A stretch of DNA of 64,000 nucleotides from an uncultured Actinomycetes bacterium (GTDB lineage: Bacteria > Actinomycetota > Acidimicrobiia > IMCC26256 > JANYLB01), in the NCBI GenBank assembly GCA_963837715.1, contig CAWIOF010000004.1, positions 1,222,552 through 1,286,551 of the forward strand. Reading direction: 5' to 3'. The translations under genes and the position numbers were made by a program. The notes beneath the pieces are model-generated. The model was given only the letters and a program-made list of their open reading frames with translations, was not told the origin of the DNA and did no database searches. Below are positions 3,121-61,634 of the stretch, in pieces (within the stretch, counting starts at the first letter, position 1; every line of letters starts with the position of its first letter).

Positions 3121-3517
3121 ACTCCCCGCGGGTGGCCTGATCCAGGATGGCTCGGGCCCATTCGACGTCGGGGCGGGGGCGACGGTGGGTCGCGAGCTCG
3201 TCCGGGACGTCGATTTCGAGGCGGACCAGTGCGCCGCCGAGGGTCTTGCCGAGGTTGTCGCTTCGCAAGGTCCGCGGGCCGCCACCGCCGAGCGCGGCGC
3301 GCAGCACGAAGTTCAAGGCCCGGACGTTGGGAACCTCGTAGCGCACCACCGTGCCGCGCACCATCGAGCCAAAGTGTGCTTTCACCCGTTCGGCGGTGAC
3401 CTCGCGCACGATCAGGGCGTACGTGTCGTCGTCGTCGGCGAAGATCGCGACGTCGGACACGTCGCCTTTGTCGCCGGCGCGGTAGCCGCACAGTTCCCGG
3501 AGCTGGAGGCGGGCCAT
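3110..3517 (-). CDS. small conserved partner protein of AtuA-like genes (DUF4387-like)
   Basis: Internal ATG at 3517 of ORF 3110..3826; the upstream part of that ORF is Arg-rich noise. The ATG overlaps the stop of the upstream AtuA-like gene by 1 nt. Strong third-position GC bias. The family name is recalled from typical AtuA neighbourhoods and is not verified. Confidence 0.6.
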   Translation of the reverse strand: MARLQLRELCGYRAGDKGDVSDVAIFADDDDTYALIVREVTAERVKAHFGSMVRGTVVRYEVPNVRALNFVLRAALGGGGPRTLRSDNLGKTLGGALVRLEIDVPDELATHRRPRPDVEWARAILDQATRGEFRR

Positions 3518-4917
3518 CAGATCTCCTCGCCCGACACCGCTTCGAGGGTCACGGTGACATGCGGGTCGACCACCGACTTGTCGACGAGTGTGGGCCAGAT
3601 CGTCAGGAGCTCGCTCGCGCCTCCGGGTCCGCCGCGTCCCATCCCGGTGAGTCCGGCGGGGGGCGCCGACAACGTCAGTGGTGTCATCTCGCGGGCGACG
3701 AGCGCGGCGGTGCGTTCGTCGTCGCATCGCCACGCGACGCGCATCACGACCTCGGGAGGTTCGGCGTCGGTCTCGGGCACGGTCGGGCCGCCGAGTGCGT
3801 CGACGCCCCATCGCTCGAAGCACCACTCGCGCACCTCATGCCCGGCCTGCTCGACCCGCTGCACGAAGATCGCTGCAGCGACCTCGGCCTTCTCCCGCGC
3901 GTCGGGCCACGAGAACGCGACCTTCGCCTCGCCGGCCCAACCCGAATGGTGCGCGACCAGCGCCTTGTAGGTGTCGGTCGCGGGACGGCCCCGCACGTCG
4001 GTCACCCGGACCCGGTCGTCGCCGAGGTCGGTGAACGTGGCCGACGCGAAGTCGGCGACGACGTCGGGCGACAGGTAGGCCGCGGGGTCGTGCACCTCGT
4101 ACAGGAGCTGGTGGCGCACCGTGTCGACGTCGACACGTCCGCCGCTCGCCTTCGGCTTCGTGATCACCGCGGTCCCGTCGGCTTCGACCTCGGCGATCGG
4201 ATACGGGAGGTCCCACGGGTGGGGGACCGTCCACCACTCGCCGCTGAAGTTGCCGCCCGCGACCTGCCCCGAGCACTCGAGCAGGTGGCCCACGAGGATG
4301 CCTGCGGCGAGCCTGTCCCAGTCGTCGAACGACCAGCCGTGCTCGAAGATCAGCGGGGCGAGGAACAGTGCGGCATCGGCGACGCGGCCGGTGATCACGA
4401 CGTCGGCCCCTTGCTCCAACGCCTCGACGATCGGTCGTGCACCGAGGTACGCGGCTGCGAATCGAGGTGACTCGGGCAGCGAGGTGAACGACTCGCCGGT
4501 GTCGAGGTTCACGAGCGACGGGCCGATCTCGTCGATGCGGGGCATGAGGTCGTCGCCGAGGACCGTGGCGATCGTGATGCCCGAGACACCCATCGACCGC
4601 GCCGTCTCGACCGCGGCGCGGGCAGCCGCAGTCGGGTTGATGCCACCCGCGTTGGTGATCAACTTCGTGCGCCCGCCCGCGATCGCAGGGAGCGCAGCAC
4701 CGAGATAGCGGGGGAGATCGCGGGTATACCCGCGCGACTCGTCGCGCTGCTTGTCCTTCTGCAGGATTGCGAGCGTGAGCTCCGCGAGCGCTTCGAGGCA
4801 GAGGTAGTCGATCCCGTCGTCGAGCAACCCGGCGACGGAACTCGGCGTGTCGCCGTAGAACCCCTGCCCTCCCGCGACTCTGATGGTTCGTTCCGCTGCG
4901 CCGCCTCGATCGCTCAC
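3517..4917 (-). CDS. AtuA-like (DUF1446) acyclic-terpene-utilisation family protein
   Basis: ORF 3517..4938. N-terminal RVAGGQGFYGD and LITNAGGINP motifs. GTG 4917 is preceded by GAAGG at good spacing; TTG 4938 is the alternative start. Confidence 0.75.
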   Translation of the reverse strand: MSDRGGAAERTIRVAGGQGFYGDTPSSVAGLLDDGIDYLCLEALAELTLAILQKDKQRDESRGYTRDLPRYLGAALPAIAGGRTKLITNAGGINPTAAARAAVETARSMGVSGITIATVLGDDLMPRIDEIGPSLVNLDTGESFTSLPESPRFAAAYLGARPIVEALEQGADVVITGRVADAALFLAPLIFEHGWSFDDWDRLAAGILVGHLLECSGQVAGGNFSGEWWTVPHPWDLPYPIAEVEADGTAVITKPKASGGRVDVDTVRHQLLYEVHDPAAYLSPDVVADFASATFTDLGDDRVRVTDVRGRPATDTYKALVAHHSGWAGEAKVAFSWPDAREKAEVAAAIFVQRVEQAGHEVREWCFERWGVDALGGPTVPETDAEPPEVVMRVAWRCDDERTAALVAREMTPLTLSAPPAGLTGMGRGGPGGASELLTIWPTLVDKSVVDPHVTVTLEAVSGEEI

Positions 4918-4984
4918 CTGTTCACACCTTCTGGCCAATGTCCGGCGGCTCCGCTGCGCTCACGTGGGCTCACCCGAATCGCGC

Positions 4985-6424
4985 TCATGCGAAGACCCGC
5001 GGTCGCCGTTGGGCCCAGGGGTCGGCGGTCTCCAGTTGGGCGGCGACGCGGAGGAGTAGGTCTTCGCGGCCGTACGCGGCGACGAGGTGCACCCCGATGG
5101 GGAGTCCGGCGGCGTTCTCGTGGAGGGGGAGCGAGATCGCGGGCTGGCCGGTCTGGTTCGCGACCGGGGTGTACGGCGTGAACGAGCCAGACCGGGCGTA
5201 TCCCTGCAGTGGCTCCTCGGGTGTCTGCAGCACGCCGAGCTCGAGCGGCGGTTCACCCAGCGTCGGGGTGAGCAGCAGGTCGAACCCATCGGCCCACCAC
5301 TGCTGCACCCGTCGGGAGAAGGCCTGCATCCTCGTGATCGCGTCGAGGAAGTCGGTGCCGCGCTGTGAACGACCGTGTTCGGCCTGCCACCAGGTGAGCG
5401 GTTCGACGTCGTCGGCGGTGAGGTCGCGGCCGACGGCGGCACCGAAGGCATCGAGGTTCGACGCCGCGAGCGTCGCCCAGATCGGGATGAACGCGGAGAT
5501 GCGGTCGGGCTCGTCGCAGGCCGCGGGATGTGAGACCTCGACGTGGTGGCCGAGCGTCTCGAGCAGCTTCGCGGCGCGTTCCGCAGCCGCCACGCAGTCG
5601 GGATGCACCGGCTCGCCCGTCTCGGGCATGGTCGTCATGATGCCGATCCGCAGTCGGCCCGGATCGGCACCGACCTCGTCGACGAACGGGCGCACGTTCG
5701 ACGGGGCGAGCACGGGGTCTCCGACCTCTGCGCCGGCAGCGACGTCGAGCAGTGCGGCGCAGTCGCGCACGCTCTTCGTGACGGTGAACTGGACCGACAG
5801 GAACCGCGAGAGCTCGCCCAGCGCGGGACCGAGCGAGACCCGGCCCCGTGATGTCTTCAACCCCACGAGGCCGCAACAGCTCGCGGGGATCCGGATCGAC
5901 CCGCCGCCGTCGCTCGCGTGCGCGGCGGGAACCATCCCACTGGCCACGGCGGCCGCTGATCCACCGCTCGACCCACCGGGGGTCCGGGAGACGTCCCAGG
6001 GGTTGTGGGTGGGGCCGTACGAGGTCGGCTCCGTGGTGGGCATGATCCCCAGCTCGGGGCTGCTCGCCTTGCCGAGCACGACGAGGCCGGCGGCGCGGAA
6101 GCGACGGGCGAGGTTGGTGGTGACGGGCGATCGGTGATCGGCGTCCTTCAGTGCCTGCATCCCCTCGTAGGCCGGCTCGCCTTCGAACGCGCAGGCCAGG
6201 TCCTTGAAGAGGAAGGGGACGCCGCGGAACGGGCCGTCGGGGAGGTCGGGTGACGCCGCCTCGGCCCGGGCCCGGTCGAACCGGTCCGTCGTCATGGCCT
6301 TGACGATCGGCTGGAGCCGCTCGATGCGGGCGATGGCGGCGTCGACCAGCTCGAGTGGGCTCGCGGTGCCGTTGCGCACCAGCTCTGCCTGGCCCGTGGC
6401 GTCGAGTGCAGCGAGATCATCCAC
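4985..6424 (-). CDS. amidase (amidase-signature family), paralog 1
   Basis: 479-aa ORF with GGSSGGSAAAVASGMVP and DGGGSIRIPASCCGLVGLK signature blocks. Confidence 0.9.
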   Translation of the reverse strand: MDDLAALDATGQAELVRNGTASPLELVDAAIARIERLQPIVKAMTTDRFDRARAEAASPDLPDGPFRGVPFLFKDLACAFEGEPAYEGMQALKDADHRSPVTTNLARRFRAAGLVVLGKASSPELGIMPTTEPTSYGPTHNPWDVSRTPGGSSGGSAAAVASGMVPAAHASDGGGSIRIPASCCGLVGLKTSRGRVSLGPALGELSRFLSVQFTVTKSVRDCAALLDVAAGAEVGDPVLAPSNVRPFVDEVGADPGRLRIGIMTTMPETGEPVHPDCVAAAERAAKLLETLGHHVEVSHPAACDEPDRISAFIPIWATLAASNLDAFGAAVGRDLTADDVEPLTWWQAEHGRSQRGTDFLDAITRMQAFSRRVQQWWADGFDLLLTPTLGEPPLELGVLQTPEEPLQGYARSGSFTPYTPVANQTGQPAISLPLHENAAGLPIGVHLVAAYGREDLLLRVAAQLETADPWAQRRPRVFA

Positions 6425-7970: not shown

Positions 7971-8058
7971 CTCGACGGTCGAATCCGCTGCGGCGGCTCG
8001 ATCGCTCACCCATTTGCGCCCCGCGGCAGCTGTCCGCCGCCTCCGCTTCTTCTCCGGG
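7971..8058. repeat. single inverted copy of the modular intergenic repeat (modules X and Y)
   Basis: 7974-8010 matches the reverse complement of module X plus GCTCACC (35/37). 8032-8058 matches the reverse complement of module Y (24/27). The copy begins directly after the gad TGA (7968-7970). Confidence 0.75.
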
Positions 8059-18992: not shown

Positions 18993-19760
18993 CTAGCGAG
19001 CAGTCCGCTCGAGGCCCGCGGCGACGGCGTGGCCGGTCATCGCGGCGTTGAGATACGGCTCGGGGTCGTGCGCCCGGTGGCCGTTGTCGACGGCGAAGTC
19101 GGTGACGCGGGGTCCGAACCGTTCGGCCAGCTTCGGCGCGGCGCACATCCGGTCGCCGAGGGCGGCGACGTTGGTCCAGCTGACGACAGTGCCCGGCCAC
19201 GCACCGATACCGTCGACGGGTGCCGGATCGAGGTGTGGGAAGACGATGCCCTCGGCGCCGAGCGGCGAGCCGATCGTGACGAAGTCGGTGACGCCCCACT
19301 CCGGGTGCGCGCACAGCGCCTCGTAGGCGACCACGCTTCCGAGCGAGTGGGCGATGACCACCCGGGTGTCGGGATCGATGGCGCGTTCGACTCGGGCCCG
19401 CACCGCGACCCGGATCGACGGGTCGGCGAAGTACCGACCGACCTGGTCGATCAGGCGGTGCAGCATCTCGGTTCCCACCGCCTGGGCGATGACCTCGAGC
19501 CCGCCGCTTCCCTGCAGCTGTCCGGCCAGGTCGAGGAGCCCGGAGTTGCGGGCCACCTGCTCGAGATCGGCGTCGGTCGGCTCTGCGTCGGGCGCGTGCC
19601 GGAAGAGGTCGCCGTAGAACGCGACGGAGAAATCATCGGCCGAGATGTCGACGTCGGCATGCCAGAGTCCGTCGCGCACCGCGGGGAGCCACCGCCCCCC
19701 GATCTCGTTCGGGCCCCACAACTCGTTGAACGCCCCGTGGACTCCGACCACCCGCGCCAT
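18993..19760 (-). CDS. alpha/beta-hydrolase (lipase-like) protein
   Basis: 255 aa with the GxSxG nucleophile elbow AHSLGS. Confidence 0.6.
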   Translation of the reverse strand: MARVVGVHGAFNELWGPNEIGGRWLPAVRDGLWHADVDISADDFSVAFYGDLFRHAPDAEPTDADLEQVARNSGLLDLAGQLQGSGGLEVIAQAVGTEMLHRLIDQVGRYFADPSIRVAVRARVERAIDPDTRVVIAHSLGSVVAYEALCAHPEWGVTDFVTIGSPLGAEGIVFPHLDPAPVDGIGAWPGTVVSWTNVAALGDRMCAAPKLAERFGPRVTDFAVDNGHRAHDPEPYLNAAMTGHAVAAGLERTAR

Positions 19761-19828
19761 GGGCCCCGAGACTAGGGCCCCGGACCGAGGTCCCCGATCG
19801 TGGCGGAGCGGATCGGTACCCTTCGGGC

Positions 19829-20413
19829 ATGGAACCCATGGGTGGCGGGGAAGTCACGAACAGTGAAGCGCGCGCGATGGTGCGCGAGGTGTCGAGCGTC
19901 TGGTGGATCGTGCTCGTGGTCGGCCTGATCTTCGTCGGCTTCGGCATCGTGATGCTCTTCGACGTCGCGGCGGGAGCGCGGGTCATCTCGACGATCGTCG
20001 GGATCTTCCTGATCTTCGACGGCATCGTCGGACTGGTCACGGCCGGGCGCAACGGTGGTTCGCGGGGTCTCGGGATCGTGCTCGGGATCGTGCTGATCAT
20101 CGGGGGCATCGTCGTCGTGGTCTGGCCGGGAGTCACGTTCCTGGTGATCGCCGTCGTCTGGGGCATCACGATCGTGGTCGGCGGCATCACGAGGATCGTC
20201 GGGTCCGTCACCGTGCGGGGCCACGGCTGGGGGTGGCTGCTCGTGATCGGGATCGCGGAGCTCGCCGTGGGAATCGCCGCGTTGGTGTGGCCGCACATCA
20301 CGGCCTACGTGATCCTGCTGCTGATCGGGATCTACGCGATCGTGGCCGGTCTCATCCAGATCTTCCTGGCCTTCGCGCTCAAGAAGGCACCCGAACGCCT
20401 CGGGATGAGCTAG
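19829..20413 (+). CDS. hdeD: HdeD-family (DUF308) acid-resistance membrane protein
   Basis: Six hydrophobic helices with repeated G-rich LxxDGIxxL / IxGGIxxI patterns typical of HdeD/DUF308. The start may instead be ATG 19877. Confidence 0.7.
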   Translation: MEPMGGGEVTNSEARAMVREVSSVWWIVLVVGLIFVGFGIVMLFDVAAGARVISTIVGIFLIFDGIVGLVTAGRNGGSRGLGIVLGIVLIIGGIVVVVWPGVTFLVIAVVWGITIVVGGITRIVGSVTVRGHGWGWLLVIGIAELAVGIAALVWPHITAYVILLLIGIYAIVAGLIQIFLAFALKKAPERLGMS

Positions 20414-20670
20414 CCCGGCGCAGCGGATTCGAACCGTCAGCACCTCAGCCGGTGAGCGGTCGAGCCGGCGCAGCGGATTCGACCGTCAAGCCGGAGAAGC
20501 AGCGGAGCCGGCGGACTTCCCCGAAGAGCACCTCAGCCGGTGAGCGGTCGAGCCGGCGCAGCGGATTCGACCGTCAAGCCGGAGAAGCAGCGGAGCCGGC
20601 GGACTTCCCCGAAGAGCACCTCAGCCGGTGAGCGGTCGAGCCGGCGCAGCGGATTCGACCGTCAAGCCGG
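20414..20670. repeat. 88-bp tandem minisatellite (27-nt partial + 2 perfect + 54-nt partial copy)
   Basis: Units start at 20441, 20529 and 20617. Copies 1 and 2 are identical 88/88, and copy 3 is identical over 54 nt. Each unit contains hairpin modules X (GGTCGAGCCGGCGCAGCGGATTCGACC) and Y (GCCGGAGAAGCAGCGGAGCCGGC). Confidence 0.95.
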
Positions 20671-21924
20671 CGTGAACGTGCACGGCATGCGTTTGATGCC
20701 ATGGATGAAGCTCGACTGGAGCATCTCGGGTTCGGCAGTGATCTCGAGGTCGGGGAGTCGACGGAAGAGCTCCTCGAACATCACCGAGATCTCGCGCCGG
20801 GCGAGGTTCGCGCCCAGGCAGAAGTGGGGCCCGCCGCCGCCGTAGCCCGCGTGCGGGTTCGGGTACCGCGTGATGTCGAACCGGAACGGATCCGGGAAGG
20901 CGCGCTCGTCGCGGTTCGCGGAGTTGAACCAGAGCACGACCTTCTCGCCCTCCTTGATGGGATGGCCGGAGATCTCGGTGTCCTGGGTCGCGGTGCGGCG
21001 GAAGTGGATCACCGGGGTCGCGTAGCGGACGATCTCCTCGACCGCGTTCTGCGCGTGGCCGTCGAAGTCGGAAATCCAGAGCGCCTTCTGGTCCGGGTTT
21101 CGGGTGAGCTCGAGCATCCCGTGGCTGATGGCCGTGCGCGTCGTCTCGTTGCCGGCCACGACGAGGAGGATGAAGAACGACGCGAACTCGGTGAGCGTGA
21201 GGCGTTCCCCGTCGACCTCGGCGTGCATGAGGGTGCTGGTGATGTCGTCGGTGGGCTCGTCGAGCCGCTGCTGGCCGAGCTCCGACGCCATCTGGTGCAG
21301 CGTCATGAACGCGCCGAGGAGGTCCTCGAACGAGTTCACGTACTCCGGGTCGCCGACGCCCAGGATGATGTTCGTCTGCTCGAACACGGTCTGCCGCATC
21401 GACTGCGGGACCCCGGTCATGTCGCAGATGATCCGCAGCGGGAGCTCGGCGGCGATCTCGCGCACGAAGTCGCACTCGCCCTTGGCGGCGACGTTGTCGA
21501 CGATGTCGACCGCCGCGGTGCGCACCGAGTCGAGCAGCTTGTTGAGCTCCTTCGGGGTGAAGCCGCTGCTCACGAGCCGACGGAGCCGGGCGTGGCGGGG
21601 GTCGTCCATGTTGATGATGCTGCCGAGGAACTCGCCCATCCCGTCGGGGATGTCGCCGATGTTCGAGCCCCCGCGCGACGAGCAGAACAGCTCGGCGTGG
21701 CGGCTCGCGTAGATGACGTCGTCGAACCGGGTGAGCGCCCAGAATCCCGGACCCTGCCCGAAGTTCTCGATCAGCGGTTCCTCGTGGAACGAGATCGGTG
21801 CTTCGTCGCGCAGCAGCTTGAAGACGGCTTCGCGTTCGGCGTCGGGTCGGGCCCACAGGTCGAGCTGGCCGAGCTCGACCTCGGGCACGGACAGCGGCGA
21901 GGGTCCCGGAAGGGTGGGCGTCAT
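20662..21924 (-). CDS. cytochrome P450
   Basis: 420 aa. AGNETT I-helix, EEIVRY (ExxR) and the haem loop FGGGGPHFCLGANLAR are present. Confidence 0.9.
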   Translation of the reverse strand: MTPTLPGPSPLSVPEVELGQLDLWARPDAEREAVFKLLRDEAPISFHEEPLIENFGQGPGFWALTRFDDVIYASRHAELFCSSRGGSNIGDIPDGMGEFLGSIINMDDPRHARLRRLVSSGFTPKELNKLLDSVRTAAVDIVDNVAAKGECDFVREIAAELPLRIICDMTGVPQSMRQTVFEQTNIILGVGDPEYVNSFEDLLGAFMTLHQMASELGQQRLDEPTDDITSTLMHAEVDGERLTLTEFASFFILLVVAGNETTRTAISHGMLELTRNPDQKALWISDFDGHAQNAVEEIVRYATPVIHFRRTATQDTEISGHPIKEGEKVVLWFNSANRDERAFPDPFRFDITRYPNPHAGYGGGGPHFCLGANLARREISVMFEELFRRLPDLEITAEPEMLQSSFIHGIKRMPCTFTPA

Positions 21925-42889: not shown

Positions 42890-42980
42890 CCGAGGCGCCC
42901 CTTCTGGTTCGCTCCGTTGCGGCGCCTCGATCGCGCACCGGTTGCCGGCCCGCGCCGCGTGGCCGGCGCCTTCACTGCGC

Positions 42981-44201
42981 TCATCCAAGCTCGCGGAAGT
43001 GCTCGTACTTGCGGAGCTCGCGGCGGGCGATCTGCTGCTTGTGGACCTCGTCGGGACCGTCGACGAGATGCAGGGTGCGGGCGTGGGTGTACATGTCGGC
43101 GAGGGGCCAGTCCTGCGACACACCGGCCCCGCCGAAGAGCTGGATGGCGCGATCGATCACCTCGGTGGCCGTGCGGGCGGCGAGCACCTTGATCGCCGCG
43201 ATCTCGAAGCGAGCGCCCTTGTTGCCGACGGTGTCCATCAACCACGCGGCCTTCATCGTCAGGAGGCGGGTGGTCTCGATCGCGATCCGACTCTCGGCGA
43301 TCTGATCCTGCACGACGCCCTGCTCGGCGAGCGGCTTGCCGAACGGCGTGCGCATCCACGCCCGCATGCCCATCAGCTCGAGCGCCTTCTCGGCGAGACC
43401 GATCGCCCGCATGCAGTGGTGGATTCGACCGGGGCCGAGGCGGGCCTGCGCCATCGCGAAGCCGTTGCCCTCACCGCCGATCACGTTCGTGATCGGGACG
43501 CGCACGTCTTCGAAGAGCGTCTCGCAGTGGCCGCCACCGGCGTCGTGGCCGAACACCGACAAGGTCCGCACCACCTGGGCGCCCGGCGCGTCGAACGGCA
43601 CGATGACCATCGAATGGCGGTGGTACGGGTCGGCGCCGGGATCCGACACACCCATCAGGATCGCGAACTTGCACCGACTCGACGCCGCGCCACTCGTCCA
43701 CCACTTGTGTGCGTTGACCACGTAGTGGTCGCCGTCGCGCTCGATCCGCGACTGGATGTTCGTGGCATCGGAGCTCGCCACCCACGGCTCGGTCATCGCG
43801 AAGCAGGAGCGGATCTCGCCTTCGAGCAGCGGTACGAGCCATTCGTCCTGCTGCTCGGGCGTGCCGAACTCGGCGAGCAGCTCCATGTTGCCGGTGTCGG
43901 GCGCGGCGCAGTTCGTGGCCTCCGACGTGAGGAGGTTGCGGCCCATCAGCTCGCAGAGCGGGGCGTAGTCGACGTTCGACAGCCCGGCGCCGAAGGTGTC
44001 GTTGGGCATGAAGAGGTTCCACAACCCGCGGGCGCGGGCCTCGGTCTTGAGCTCCTCCATCACCGGGGGGTGGAAGTGCGAATCGCCTGATTCGCGCACC
44101 TGTTCGAAGTACACCGACGTGGCCGGTTCGACGGTGCTGTCGATGAAGTCCTGCAGCTCGCCGCGGAGCTCCTCGGCTCGTGGGCTGATCGAGAAGTCCA
44201 T
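42981..44201 (-). CDS. acyl-CoA dehydrogenase (ACAD10/11-like FadE)
   Basis: 406 aa. CFAMTEPWVASSDATN and the C-terminal GGAGVSQDWPLA motifs. Confidence 0.9.
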   Translation of the reverse strand: MDFSISPRAEELRGELQDFIDSTVEPATSVYFEQVRESGDSHFHPPVMEELKTEARARGLWNLFMPNDTFGAGLSNVDYAPLCELMGRNLLTSEATNCAAPDTGNMELLAEFGTPEQQDEWLVPLLEGEIRSCFAMTEPWVASSDATNIQSRIERDGDHYVVNAHKWWTSGAASSRCKFAILMGVSDPGADPYHRHSMVIVPFDAPGAQVVRTLSVFGHDAGGGHCETLFEDVRVPITNVIGGEGNGFAMAQARLGPGRIHHCMRAIGLAEKALELMGMRAWMRTPFGKPLAEQGVVQDQIAESRIAIETTRLLTMKAAWLMDTVGNKGARFEIAAIKVLAARTATEVIDRAIQLFGGAGVSQDWPLADMYTHARTLHLVDGPDEVHKQQIARRELRKYEHFRELG

Positions 44202-58371: not shown

Positions 58372-59387
58372 TGGTCGATCCAGGTGGCGCGGTTGCGTGC
58401 GATGCGGGCCGGCGCGATCTCGAAGGGATCCGTGGGAACGGGCGCGTAGCGGGCCCACGACTCCGGCACCGTCACGCCCTCGCGCACCGGGTACACGTAC
58501 ATCTGGTCGGGAACTCCGGCCTGGAACCGCGCCGACAGCATCCAGTCGACGAGCGCCCGGGCGAGCTTCGGGTGCTCCGCACCGCGCAGCACCCCCGCGA
58601 ACTCGACCTGGCGGAAACAGGTGTCGAGCACCGCGGCCGTCGGGGCTTCGGCCGGCGTCCCCTCGGTCACGCCGGCCGGCGGGCTCGACGCGTACGACAC
58701 GACGAGCGGGAAGGTGCCACCCTGGCCACCGCCTGCGAAGTCGCTGAAGTACGCCTGTTCCCACCCGTCGTCGACCTTGACGCCGTTGTCTCGGAGTTTC
58801 GTCCAGTAGTCGCGCCAATCGTCGCCGTACTTCGCGACGGTGGCGAGGAGGAACGCGAGCCCGGGTGAGCTGCTCGCGGCGTTCTCGACGACGAGCATCC
58901 CTTCGTAGGCCGGCTGCACGAGGTCGTCGAGCGAGGCGGGGGCCGGGATCCCTCGATCGGCGAGGGCGGCGCGGTCGTAGTTGACGCACACGTCGCCGAA
59001 GTCGATCGGGGTCAGCTCGTGGGTCGGGTCGAGCTGGTACTCCGCGGGAACCGAGTCGAGGCCGGCCGGTTCGTACGGCTCGAACACGTTCGCGTCGGTG
59101 GCGCGGGACAGAAAGGTGTTGTCGACCCCGAACATGGCGTCGCCGAGCGGCTCACCCTTGGTGAGGACGACCTGGTTGAGCGCGCTCGCGGCGTCGCCCG
59201 ACTTCAGGATCTTCACGTCGACGTCGTGGGCCCGTTCGAACGCCGCGAGGTCGGACTTCGCGACGGCGAAGGAGTCGTGGGTCACGAGCGTGACCGTGCG
59301 TGCGCTGCTCGAGTCGGAGCTGCTGCACGCGACCAACGCGGTTCCGGCGAGCACCGCCGCGAGGGTGAGGCTGAGGAATCGCTGCAT
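58347..59387 (-). CDS. ABC transporter substrate-binding lipoprotein, thiamine-binding (ThiB/TbpA)-like
   Basis: Lipobox LVACSS. The size and fold pattern match type-II SBPs. The thiamine assignment rests mainly on the upstream TPP riboswitch and the thiN gene. Confidence 0.8.
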   Translation of the reverse strand: MQRFLSLTLAAVLAGTALVACSSSDSSSARTVTLVTHDSFAVAKSDLAAFERAHDVDVKILKSGDAASALNQVVLTKGEPLGDAMFGVDNTFLSRATDANVFEPYEPAGLDSVPAEYQLDPTHELTPIDFGDVCVNYDRAALADRGIPAPASLDDLVQPAYEGMLVVENAASSSPGLAFLLATVAKYGDDWRDYWTKLRDNGVKVDDGWEQAYFSDFAGGGQGGTFPLVVSYASSPPAGVTEGTPAEAPTAAVLDTCFRQVEFAGVLRGAEHPKLARALVDWMLSARFQAGVPDQMYVYPVREGVTVPESWARYAPVPTDPFEIAPARIARNRATWIDQWTDTVLR

Positions 59388-59388
59388 A

Positions 59389-60055
59389 TCAGGGTTGCTC
59401 CGGGATCGCGTCGGGACGCACCACGAGGAGCACGCCGTCGGTCAGGGCGACGCGTGCCGTCGGCGCGTCGAACTCGTTGCTGACTCCCCGGCTCGTTCCG
59501 GGGCGCAGGTCCTCGCCGTGGAGTGCCCACCGCAGACCGTGGGTGGTCACGGCGCGTGCTGGTCCACCGAGCGGCAGCAACGACACGAGCTCGCCTGGCG
59601 TGCCGGTGAACTCGGTCGCATCGCGCACGACCGTCGCGACCGCCGTGCCGGCGCGGGCCTCGATCTCGAGGTCGGCGAACTCCGGGGAGGCGAGGAGCAG
59701 CGCGTTGGCGAGGAAGTGATCGAGCCGCCCACCGCCCACCCCGACGACCACGATCCGTCGCGCGCCCCGGTTCCGTGCGGCGGCGAGCGCGAGTTCGAGA
59801 TCGGTCGCGTCCTTGTCGGACGGGTGGCGCTCCACGGCGCTGCCGGCGGCGACCGCGGCTTCGAGGTCGCGCGGGCTCGACCGAGTCGAGGTCGCCGACG
59901 ACCACGTCGACCACGAGTCCCGCGGCGACCGCGTGTCGGAGACCGGAATCGGCCGCGACGAGGATCGAACCGGTCGGGAGATCAGCGAGGGTCCCGCGGG
60001 CGGGCGCGTCACCACCGGCGAAGATCACCGCCGTCGTGTCGCGTTCGGTGCCCAT
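59389..60055 (-). pseudogene. thiN: thiamine pyrophosphokinase, frame-disrupted (or sequencing error)
   Basis: ATG 60055. VIFAGGD...VAADSG...VVGDLDSV is in ORF 59282..60055. HPSDKDATDLELAL and GVGGGRLDH are in ORF 59389..60015. There is an extra C in the run at 59873-59875; length is 3n+1. Confidence 0.85.
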
Positions 60056-60060
60056 CGGTT

Positions 60061-60148
60061 CCTCCCTGCGCCGGCATGATCCGGATCAGGTTCGAACGGT
60101 CGGTGGCTGCGTGCCACCCTCTCAGCCCGGCGCACCGGACTCCCGTGT
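60061..60148 (-). promoter_or_regulatory. TPP (THI-box) riboswitch
   Basis: The reverse strand reads ACGGGAGUCCGGUGCGCCGGGCUGAGAGGGUGGCACGCAGCCACCGACCGUUCGAACCUGAUCCGGAUCAUGCCGGCGCAGGGAGG. This carries the conserved CUGAGA and GAACCUGAUCCGGAU-AUGCCGGCG-AGGGA cores. Its 3' GGGAGG is the thiN ribosome-binding site, 6 nt before the ATG. Confidence 0.9.
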
Positions 60149-60180
60149 GAACGTGCGTACGAAACCGAGGGTAGCGCGAG

Positions 60181-60432
60181 GCCGGAGAAGCAGCGGAGCC
60201 GGCGGACAGTGGTTGCGGCTGTGGCACGGGTGGGCGGTCGAGCCGGCGGAGCGGATTCGACCGTCAGCCGGAGAGCGGTGTCGGCGGACAGTGGTTGCGG
60301 CGTCAGGGTGGGCGGTCGAGCCGGCGGAGCGGATTCGACCGTCAGGCCGGAGAAGCAGCGGTGCCGGCGGACAGTGGTTGCGGCTGTGGCACGGGTGGGC
60401 GGTCGAGCCGGCGGAGCGGATTCGACCGTCAG
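60181..60432. repeat. variant tandem array (3 units, periods 86 and 79) of the modular intergenic repeat
   Basis: Units start at 60181, 60267 and 60346. Modules Y (GCCGGAGAAGCAGCGGAGCCGGCGGAC) and X (GGTCGAGCCGGCGGAGCGGATTCGACCGTCAG) are shared with 20414-20670. The linker differs (AGTGGTTGCGGCTGTGGCACGGGTGGGC). Confidence 0.9.
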
Positions 60433-61634
60433 GGCGCGAGAGTCTCGAAGGCTTGGAGGGTGGCGGCGACCAGGACCCGGATGCCCACCTCGATGGCCCC
60501 CTCGTCGACGTCGAACGTCCCGGCGTGCAGGTCGAGCCGCGGACCGTGGCTGCTCGGATCGTGCACGCCGAGGCGCACGTACGAACCCGGGACCTGTTCG
60601 AGGTACCAGGCGAAGTCGTCGGCGCCCGCGCTCTGTTCCATGACGACCACGGCCTCGGTGCCGACGACCGACCGGGCCCCCGCCGCGAAGACCTCGGTCA
60701 TCGCCGGGTCGTTCACCACCGGAGGGACGCCGCGTTGGTGGTCGAGTTCGACGCTCGCGCCGGTGGGTCCGACGAGCTCGTCGAGCGCGGCGACGAGCGC
60801 TTCCGGAGCCCGGGCCCACGCGTCGCGGTCACGCGACCGGACCGTCCCGCGCAGCATCGCAGTCGTTGGAATCACGTTGGCCGCGTCGCCGGCGGCGATC
60901 GCGCCGAAGACGAGGTTGAGGTCGCCGACCCGTTCCCGCAGTAGCCCGGGCAGCTCGCTCACGATCCGGGCCGCGACGGTGACGAGGTCGACCGTCTGTT
61001 GCGGACGGGCGGTGTGGCCGCCGGGTCCGTGGACGGTGATCTCGACGAGGTCGGCCGCCGAGGTGATCGCACCCGGTCGCACGCCGATCACGCCGCTGTC
61101 GAGCCGGGGGTCGCAGTGGTAGCCGAAGCACGCGCCGACTCCGGCGAGACCTCCGTCGGCGATCACGTCGCGGGCACCACCGCGGGCCGACTCCTCCGCG
61201 GGTTGGAACACCAGCCGGACCCGGCCCGGCACACCTGCCGCCGTCCGCCCGAGTTGCGTGAGCGCGAGTCCAGCGCCGAGGACCACCGTCGTGTGCACGT
61301 CGTGTCCGCACGCGTGGGCGACGCCCTCGACCTGGGAGCGGTACGGGACGTCCTTGTCGTCATGCATCGCGAGCGCGTCGAGATCGGCCCGCAGCGCGAC
61401 CATCGGCCCGGCGGCGGGCCCGGCGTCGAGATCACACAGCACACCGGTCCCCCGGGTGAGGACCCGCGGCTGGAGGCCGGCGACTTGGAGGCGGCTGCTC
61501 ACCGCCGCGGTCGTTGCATGCTCCTCTCCACTCACCTCCGGGTGAGAGTGCAGCTGGCGGCGGAACGCGACCAGCTCCTCGAGGTGCGCGGCGAAGAACT
61601 CGTCGAGGAAGTGCTCGAGGGACTCGTCGGTCAC
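60429..61634 (-). CDS. M20D-family amidohydrolase (N-acyl-amino-acid / hippurate hydrolase-like)
   Basis: GTG 61634 (GTGA overlap with the upstream stop) inside ORF 60429..61994. HACGHDVH, FQPAEE and GADDFAWY motifs. Confidence 0.85.
   Translation of the reverse strand: MTDESLEHFLDEFFAAHLEELVAFRRQLHSHPEVSGEEHATTAAVSSRLQVAGLQPRVLTRGTGVLCDLDAGPAAGPMVALRADLDALAMHDDKDVPYRSQVEGVAHACGHDVHTTVVLGAGLALTQLGRTAAGVPGRVRLVFQPAEESARGGARDVIADGGLAGVGACFGYHCDPRLDSGVIGVRPGAITSAADLVEITVHGPGGHTARPQQTVDLVTVAARIVSELPGLLRERVGDLNLVFGAIAAGDAANVIPTTAMLRGTVRSRDRDAWARAPEALVAALDELVGPTGASVELDHQRGVPPVVNDPAMTEVFAAGARSVVGTEAVVVMEQSAGADDFAWYLEQVPGSYVRLGVHDPSSHGPRLDLHAGTFDVDEGAIEVGIRVLVAATLQAFETLAP

Follow-up and report, generated by a model that had tools for sequence, protein, structure and literature searches.

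A tandem array between hdeD and a cytochrome P450 gene as part of a dispersed REPIN-like hairpin repeat family in an uncultured Acidimicrobiia lineage

The hdeD/P450 array and its dispersed relatives

In a 64,000-nt stretch of DNA from an uncultured Actinomycetes bacterium (contig CAWIOF010000004.1; "the window" denotes this whole stretch), a DUF308/HdeD-family gene (hdeD) and a convergent cytochrome P450 gene are separated by a gap of 248 bp that is filled by an 88-bp tandem array. The features at this site are listed below in window coordinates, with unit scores taken from a covariance model of the repeat element and genes identified as open reading frames (ORFs).

19829..20413, + strand: DUF308/HdeD-family gene (ORF), with its TAG stop (20411-20413) adjoining the array
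20401..20487, + strand: degenerate first unit (covariance model, 41.7 bits)
20414..20440, + strand: leading partial copy, the tail of a 3' arm plus one extra A (25 nt aligned)
20441..20670, + strand: 88-bp tandem array of 2.6 perfectly identical copies (Tandem Repeats Finder (TRF), string identity)
20491..20575, + strand: complete element unit 1 (covariance model, 87.7 bits)
20493..20512, + strand: 5' arm (Y) of unit 1, GGAGAAGCAGCGGAGCCGGC, pairing with the 3' arm (covariation, RNAalifold)
20513..20551, + strand: apical region of unit 1, consisting of GGAC, the fast-evolving middle TTCCCCGAAGAGCACCTCAGCC and a conserved GGTGAGCGGTCGA (alignment)
20552..20572, + strand: 3' arm (X) of unit 1, GCCGGCGCAGCGGATTCGACC, pairing with the 5' arm (covariation, RNAalifold)
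20579..20663, + strand: complete element unit 2 (covariance model, 87.7 bits)
20662..21924, - strand: cytochrome P450 gene (ORF), convergent, its end lying inside the repeat

TRF called a single array at 20439-20670 with a period of 88, 2.6 copies, 100 % matches, no indels and a score of 464, and string comparison found 20441-20528 to be identical to 20529-20616 and 20617-20670 to be identical to nt 1-54 of the unit. Both analyses agree with the layout of perfect 88-nt copies in the original prediction, and an alignment over 25 nt agrees with the partial copy and extra A that it placed before copy 1. Its claim that no unique intergenic DNA remains also stands: the hdeD TAG adjoins the array, the end of unit 2 (...GACCGTCA) supplies the P450 stop codon (TCA, 20662-20664), and the last two P450 codons (CCG GCT, 20665-20670) are repeat bases. 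The degenerate first unit combines the hdeD 3' end, a partial X', half of a middle and a full 3' arm. Close homologs of the window P450 are found in Acidimicrobiia metagenome-assembled genomes (MAGs).

The array had been described as a stand-alone minisatellite. Instead, it belongs, as a local array, to a dispersed family with a modal period of 88 bp. A 27-nt core of X has seven matches in the window compared to none in 100 shuffles, and a 23-nt core of Y has five compared to 0.01 expected from shuffles. With a covariance model built on 82 non-redundant units, we detected nine units at five loci in the window (about 42-96 bits, next-best match at most 17 bits), a density of about one locus per 13 kb, and TRF reported a second related array at about 60179-60441. 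The genes flanking these elements are ordinary metabolic genes. The five loci are as follows (related sequences from elsewhere carry L numbers).

4882..4965, - strand: locus A, one diverged unit between an amidase stop and an AtuA gene (72.5 bits)
7974..8057, - strand: locus B, one unit between an amidase gene and a convergent pyridoxal phosphate (PLP) decarboxylase gene, with an ortholog in L031 (96.4 bits)
20401..20663, + strand: locus C, the hdeD/P450 array (41.7, 87.7 and 87.7 bits)
42903..42988, - strand: locus D, one old unit after an acyl-CoA dehydrogenase stop and before the ATG of the next co-directional ORF (60.4 bits)
60182..60430, + strand: locus E, a three-unit array between the stop of an M20 peptidase gene and a thiamine pyrophosphate (TPP) riboswitch, antisense to both (89.4, 58.6 and 85.4 bits)

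Beyond the window, the X core was found at 11 loci in species-representative genomes, nine of them in the Acidimicrobiia MAG JBBRHS01, one in the Acidimicrobiia MAG JBBQMI01 and one in an "uncultured Actinomycetes" MAG, and it occurs in 90 metagenome contigs or loci. Applied to 622 kb of related Acidimicrobiia metagenome loci, the covariance model recovered 198 units. A search of Rfam 15 gave no match (the best array matches had E = 1.1 and 5.4), with the TPP riboswitch alone passing an Rfam gathering threshold in the window, and literature searches returned no description of such repeats in Acidimicrobiia. The element represents a dense family of REPIN-like hairpin repeats, so far undescribed, in an uncultured lineage of Acidimicrobiia.

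The diverged copies at loci A and D (4882-4965 and 42903-42988) have two derived features in common, TGAGCGCAG instead of GGAGAAGNAG on the 5' side and GGA(A/G)CGAACCA instead of GGATTCGACC on the 3' side, which suggests an older subfamily with its own consensus. Loci A and B each follow one of two paralogous amidase genes (4985-6424 and 8077-~9500, both on the - strand) that are ~69 % identical at the nucleotide level, as judged by BLAST of L031 and L092 against both; each paralog is followed by one sense element, diverged at locus A and well conserved at locus B. The pairs could stem from an ancient duplication that included the element or from independent insertions.

Several other identities for the repeat were considered and rejected. 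A coding repeat is ruled out by out-of-frame periods: across the family these span 79-90 nt and are divisible by three in only 17 of 47 cases, the chance level, in keeping with the earlier view that the ORFs listed across the array are artefacts. For annotation, ~250 bp of seeming ORFs at the hdeD/P450 array are non-coding. A CRISPR-like array is excluded because the "spacers" within an array are alike (95 % identical), and integron attC sites are excluded on context, the neighbours being syntenic metabolic genes rather than cassettes. The GGATTCGAACC of the partial copy looks like a T-loop, but ARAGORN found 0 genes and the other copies do not have the extra A, arguing against a tRNA-derived or tRNA-like element.

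Anatomy of the unit and its predicted hairpin

The unit is ~84 nt long, with 81-83 nt from GGAGAAG to GACCRTC. It consists of a near-invariant 5' block, A-GGAGAAG-N-AGCGGAGCCGGCGGAC (as the conserved 5' arm, A-GGAGAAG-N-AGCGGAGCCGGC), and a near-invariant 3' block, GGTGAGCG-R-TCGAGCCGGCGCAGCGGATTCGACC-RTCARG (as the conserved 3' arm, GCCGGCGCAGCGGATTCGACC-RTCARG), with about 20 variable nucleotides between the two blocks and a middle whose length is fixed. About 51 types of middle are present in 108 arrays, with an identity of 95 % within arrays and 59 % between loci. A loose pattern common to them marks the middle as the fast-evolving part of one homologous element.

Two hairpins per unit, X and Y, had been predicted. 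Their complementary segments are literally present, but this is no evidence of structure, and covariation backs one long hairpin in which Y pairs with X. Across the 82 distinct units, the arm-to-arm helices (GG/CC, GAA/TTC, GC/GC and GCCGGC/GCCGGC) are 96-99 % paired, and compensatory double changes occur at six of the 13 arm-to-arm pairs. The covariation score, for a structure that also took in the weak mid-helix described below, was 0.092 compared to 0.029-0.034 in slid controls and was reached by 0 of 500 shuffles. RNAalifold, unaided, arrived at the same long-range helices, which in the alignment are parted by internal loops of conserved purines (G/A), with G-N-A facing G-G-A and G-G-A facing G-C-A. 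In the locus D copy, which lay outside the training set of the model, 12 of the 13 pairs are canonical and several are changed on both sides. This comparative evidence supports one long predicted arm-to-arm hairpin of 13 canonical bp, which would form in RNA or in single-stranded DNA; inverted DNA-binding sites of one protein would be expected to show the same covariation. Neither local hairpin is supported by the comparison: X has 0 compensatory changes and two pairs broken in 54 of 82 sequences, and Y needs junction bases ('gcc') peculiar to the arrays of this genome, most units having CAGG or TAGG there.

A further helix in the variable region, CACCCG/CGGGTG, is 64 % paired with some covariation, in a part where the alignment is unreliable. 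Counts of G.U versus A.C (8:3 and 13:7) are not significant as evidence for the folding strand. Single-sequence folds overall show no gain over dinucleotide shuffles (z from -1.9 to +1.0). In the suggested folding check, single units had no advantage (z = -0.48 on the + strand and +0.96 on the - strand), and the whole array had a modest one on the + strand only (z = -2.43, 5 of 200 shuffles, compared to z = -0.75 on the - strand).

Gene ends and the turnover of units

Elements lie almost exclusively at gene 3' ends and often donate the stop codons of their neighbours. Gene contexts were derived by frame calling, and the caller was correct on all five window loci. At its 5' end, the element meets the 3' terminus of a gene in the same orientation in 38 cases versus 6 divergent ones, and the element 3' end faces a convergent gene in 32 cases versus 14. 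The 28 fully called contexts comprise 17 convergent, seven co-directional sense, four divergent and 0 antisense arrangements; locus E in the window is one known antisense case. Upstream stops end on the initial G of GGAGAAG in 9 of 40 loci (5' side, peak at 0) and are TAG in 22 of 40; on the 3' side, the convergent gene takes its stop from GACC-R-TCA of the element itself in 18 of 46 loci (peak at +2). As stops peak at both element ends, the P450 stop inside the repeat follows a family rule and is not a local oddity.

At locus A, the AtuA ORF (3517-4938, - strand) begins inside the element and the AtuA Pfam match sets in 18 codons further on. The in-frame GTG of the conserved GGTGAGCG block is probably the AtuA start, and the element may supply the first ~11 AtuA codons. 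A further case is L109 (2721-2793), where the 87 % ortholog of the M20 peptidase gene meets an element whose 3' end lacks TCA; for this reason, the ORF extends 13 codons into the reverse complement of the X arm. The L109 peptidase has 421 aa versus 401, and the contig breaks 27 nt further on, inside the repeat.

Among the 150 best matches together with the window, 74 arrays are single, 28 double, seven triple and two quadruple. Adjacent units are spaced 87-88 nt apart in 30 of 47 pairs and have a mean identity of 96 %, with six of the 47 pairs identical. Among the sampled loci, orthologs whose flanks are 86-95 % identical differ in copy number (3 vs 1; 2 vs 1 vs 1.7; 1 vs 2), and seven orthologous pairs with flanks at least 96.5 % identical do not. 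A doublet in L016 (3394-3566) stands apart from the other 46 pairs in that its two neighbouring units differ in their middles, with an overall identity of 81 %; it stems either from an old duplication or from a second unit that landed beside an existing one.

We compared the hdeD/P450 gap in eight related genomes, window included, and found the following states.

L105, L107 and L108: empty, the genes overlapping by 4-8 nt (…AGC TAG CCCGG(G)C TC GTGAAC…)
L106: 37 unrelated nt
L104: a single complete unit whose middle differs
L102: a single unit in which Y has an internal deletion
L103: a partial 3' arm and one unit (~1.45 units)
Window: ~2.9 units

The gap thus ranges from 0 to ~2.9 units, in agreement with the earlier proposal of a recent expansion and a potential variable-number tandem repeat (VNTR). 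The covariance model has no match in the 37 nt of L106, which speaks against a decayed remnant there, and L102 and L103 differ in their gaps (72 vs 122 nt) with P450 genes that are 98.7 % identical. The four lineages are about equidistant (88-90 %), so gain and loss are not polarisable at this gap; either one is turnover. The P450 ends in …FTPA* in filled alleles, using the element's TCA, and in …FTSPG* or …FTSRAS* in empty ones. The leading partial copy opens with CCCGGC, the bases that follow TAG in the empty alleles. The unit junction GTCA-AGCC-GGAGAAG (AAGCC|GG) repeats the terminal AGCCGG of the P450 gene, from which we infer that the duplicated segment took in 5 nt of flank and was joined at a GG microhomology. 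This junction points to a local duplication, probably followed by slippage or unequal exchange, and not to repeated insertion.

The empty site of L105, L107 and L108 (…GGGATCAGC TAG CCCGGC…) already resembles the palindromic core of the element, GCCGGC. In the window, the covariance model aligned the hdeD 3' end (20401-20422) as a pseudo-5' arm, with 12 of 13 pairs to the first full 3' arm canonical. These features may reflect a target preference or homology-guided insertion.

A second case of presence and absence is locus E, which is filled in the window and in L109 and empty in L110, L111 and L112. Beside it, a TPP riboswitch (60046-60156, - strand, 63 bits) lies upstream of a minus-strand ORF (59282-60055) that has no Pfam hit; the counterpart of this ORF in orthologous loci is a thiamine pyrophosphokinase gene. 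The array (60182-60430) is located ~25 nt (60157-60181) upstream of the riboswitch. In the empty alleles L110 and L111, a 19-nt spacer, CCAGGGTTGAAGGCATCGA, precedes a conserved TCGCGCTACCCT with a possible -10 element, TACCCT. Since the array replaces this spacer, any -35 region would be displaced in the window.

Comparison with known repeats and alternative explanations

We compared the family with described repeat systems, and its architecture agrees with that of REPINs (REP-BIME elements) in nearly every respect. REPINs have conserved inverted ends, a less-conserved spacer of fixed length, in which length and the capacity to form a hairpin count, and compensatory changes, and their clusters are tandem repeats of nearly identical units, flanking sequence included, as analysed in Proteobacteria and Cyanobacteria (Bertels & Rainey 2011, PMC3116915). 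The Acidimicrobiia element likewise has two conserved inverted ends around a less-conserved spacer of constrained length, is hairpin-capable with compensatory changes across the hairpin, exists in hundreds of dispersed extragenic copies, and forms ordered tandem clusters that include flank (the AAGCC junction corresponds to the terminal P450 codons). It differs in its host, an uncultured Acidimicrobiia lineage, in that a RAYT (Y1 transposase) was not found close to the sampled copies, and in that its arms do not seem to be a pair of copies of a single short palindromic REP: the 3' arm holds GGTCGA...TCGACC, which shows no covariation, and the 5' arm has no equivalent palindrome beyond GCCGGC. 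On the 3' side there is also an additional block, GGTGAGCGRTCGA, that is conserved but unpaired, and purine internal loops are conserved in the helix. In a REPIN population, middles are expected to be far less diverse within a genome than they are in this element.

With miniature inverted-repeat transposable elements (MITEs) of DDE insertion sequences (ISs), such as Correia and ERIC-type elements, the family shares short non-coding units, imperfect terminal inverted repeats (13 complementary positions between the arms), hairpin formation if transcribed, stop-codon donation and presence/absence polymorphism. Such MITEs are usually uniform along their whole length; the middles here are variable, and no parent IS with matching ends was seen.

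The hdeD/P450 array likely originated from a single copy of a REPIN-like hairpin element, lineage-specific, non-autonomous and located at gene 3' ends, that expanded in tandem at this site. That the array belongs to the family and expanded locally is essentially shown. A founder unit would have lodged between the overlapping hdeD and P450 stops, which provided the P450 with a new stop and C-terminus (...FTPA*). The unit and 5 nt of flank (AAGCC) would then have been duplicated in tandem at the 2-nt GG microhomology, and the array expanded or trimmed through replication slippage or unequal recombination, which would explain both the perfect identity of the copies and the length differences between relatives. 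The L031 ortholog of locus B carries the middle type of the hdeD/P450 array (19 of 23 positions alike), and L084 and L061, which have unrelated flanks, likewise share almost the same middle; copying or conversion has thus moved whole units from locus to locus. Such spread would need either a putative enzyme acting in trans or gene conversion by way of the conserved arms. If either gene is transcribed into the array, stable long hairpins would lie at the mRNA 3' ends, where they might buffer the convergent genes without being canonical intrinsic terminators.

Several observations weigh against this account. The hypervariability of the middles holds even within one genome, which does not resemble the outcome of a recent master-copy burst. 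Between orthologous loci, the 3' block is 89-100 % identical, compared to 88-93 % for coding flanks and 41-77 % for middles, and this conservation seems to fit per-locus selection or concerted evolution better than a decaying selfish insert. The preference for sense over antisense in co-directional contexts (7:0 among those fully called, with locus E as one known antisense case) is a hint of RNA-level constraint. A search for a RAYT or transposase partner found all ten genes bracketed by oppositely oriented elements to be ordinary, a crude screen over ~700 kb found the HUH...Y signature in 0 of 751 coding-like ORFs, and a search of plasmids, phages and viral contigs returned no relatives of the unit. 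Flanking direct repeats of at least 6 nt occur at 17 of 101 loci compared to about 3 expected, about half of them being partial units and the rest having variable offsets; this mild enrichment of 6-7-nt direct repeats also counts against the reading in that genuine target-site duplications would not be expected under a RAYT-type mechanism. In the empty-versus-filled comparison for a target-site duplication at locus E, the alleles were not collinear.

In an alternative account, the element is a host-maintained 3'-end signal resembling TRIT, the Tuberculosis Rho-independent terminator motif. The arms would form a double-stranded RNA motif for a dedicated protein that ends or insulates transcription or stabilises mRNA 3' ends, copies would be kept by selection and tandem copies would add strength. 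TRIT is a conserved palindromic motif narrowly placed at annotated stop codons and without a U-tract (Gardner et al. 2011, PMC3152330). The Acidimicrobiia element, likened to it by description only, is similarly confined to one actinobacterial lineage in high copy, with strong palindromic conservation, a narrow position relative to stop codons at both of its ends and no U-tract; it differs in its longer unit, variable middle and tandem arrays. The strong enrichment in convergent gaps (17 of 28), arms more conserved than neighbouring coding DNA at orthologous loci, the retention of pairing in old copies through compensated changes, the better folding of the + strand, the excess of G.U over A.C and the sense bias would all suit such a signal.

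A terminator role of the hairpins, for which a check had been suggested, is not borne out. We found 0 canonical terminator-like sites in 19500-21500 and no canonical promoter, and the 3' flank consensus is RTCARG and not T-rich. Mycobacterial RNA polymerase needs a U-tract in vitro (PMC3993855), and only 2-4 % of the 3' ends mapped in M. tuberculosis overlap with TRITs, the closest analogue (bioRxiv 2022.06.01.494293), leaving the terminator function of TRIT itself doubtful. Against a TRIT-like signal, related genomes lack the element at the same gaps and can evidently dispense with it there. The strand evidence is weak and falls short of significance, both neighbouring genes of locus E are antisense to the array, and the signal would still need a means of spread to hundreds of sites. 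We regard a TRIT-like signal as the main rival account but as unlikely, noting that it and the hairpin-element account are not mutually exclusive. More speculatively, and in our view quite doubtfully, the elements may be a lineage-specific, protein-recognised 3'-end module and not merely selfish DNA, with the arms and purine loops binding a dedicated host factor.

Mis-assembly of a dispersed repeat could in principle have produced the copy number or the perfect identity. Identical copies tell an assembler nothing about copy number, 33 of 127 arrays come within 40 nt of the end of a contig, and in the metagenome loci L012-L101 many matches to the X core start at positions 1-35; the repeat family is in fact a major cause of contig breaks in the short-read assemblies of this lineage. 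The source contig is 1.33 Mb long, however, both flanks of the array are syntenic with orthologs, and arrays of 2-4 units recur in many independent assemblies, making an artefact very improbable.

We also consider MIRU-like operon spacers, short translated or translationally coupled modules that overlap flanking stops and starts, to be very improbable. MIRUs, reportedly described by Supply et al. in 1997 and 2000, are mainly located within operons, co-oriented and with small ORFs, as head-to-tail units of ~50-100 bp with strain-variable copy number and ends that overlap flanking stops or starts. The present family is likewise actinobacterial and dispersed, with tandem ~85-nt units behaving as VNTRs, stop codons of neighbours inside the element, the probable AtuA start at the element's GTG and a 5' end, AGGAGAAG, like a ribosome-binding site. 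In contrast, most of its copies are in convergent gaps and not inside operons, its periods are divisible by three no more often than by chance (17 of 47), its consensus has no start codon after AGGAG, and a long covarying hairpin is not known to have a counterpart in the MIRU definition. Finally, a purely local minisatellite, unique to this gap and expanded by slippage, would account for the perfect copy identity and the copy-number differences among orthologous gaps but is refuted as a complete explanation by the same arms at four other window loci and about 100 elsewhere, many of them single units, and by an 87-88-nt period that is the family mode, so that its local slippage step alone survives, as a part of the REPIN-like account.

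For the lineage itself, the last codons and stops of many genes are donated by the repeat, which matters for genome annotation. The family fragments short-read assemblies of uncultured Acidimicrobiia, with about a quarter of arrays at contig ends, and its arrays are ready length markers for strain resolution in metagenomes. With it, REPIN-like architecture reaches into the actinobacteria, to a lineage where a RAYT has so far not been seen. If the elements were indeed a protein-recognised 3'-end module, the factor would end or insulate transcription or protect mRNA 3' ends in a high-GC actinobacterium without U-tract terminators, as a factor-dependent alternative to intrinsic termination whose strength would be tuned by array copy number. 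The role of U-less hairpins at gene ends has been a standing question since TRIT was described, and the natural allelic series of 0, 1, ~1.5 and ~3 units in one convergent gap could be used to test the effect of such conserved hairpins on transcripts.

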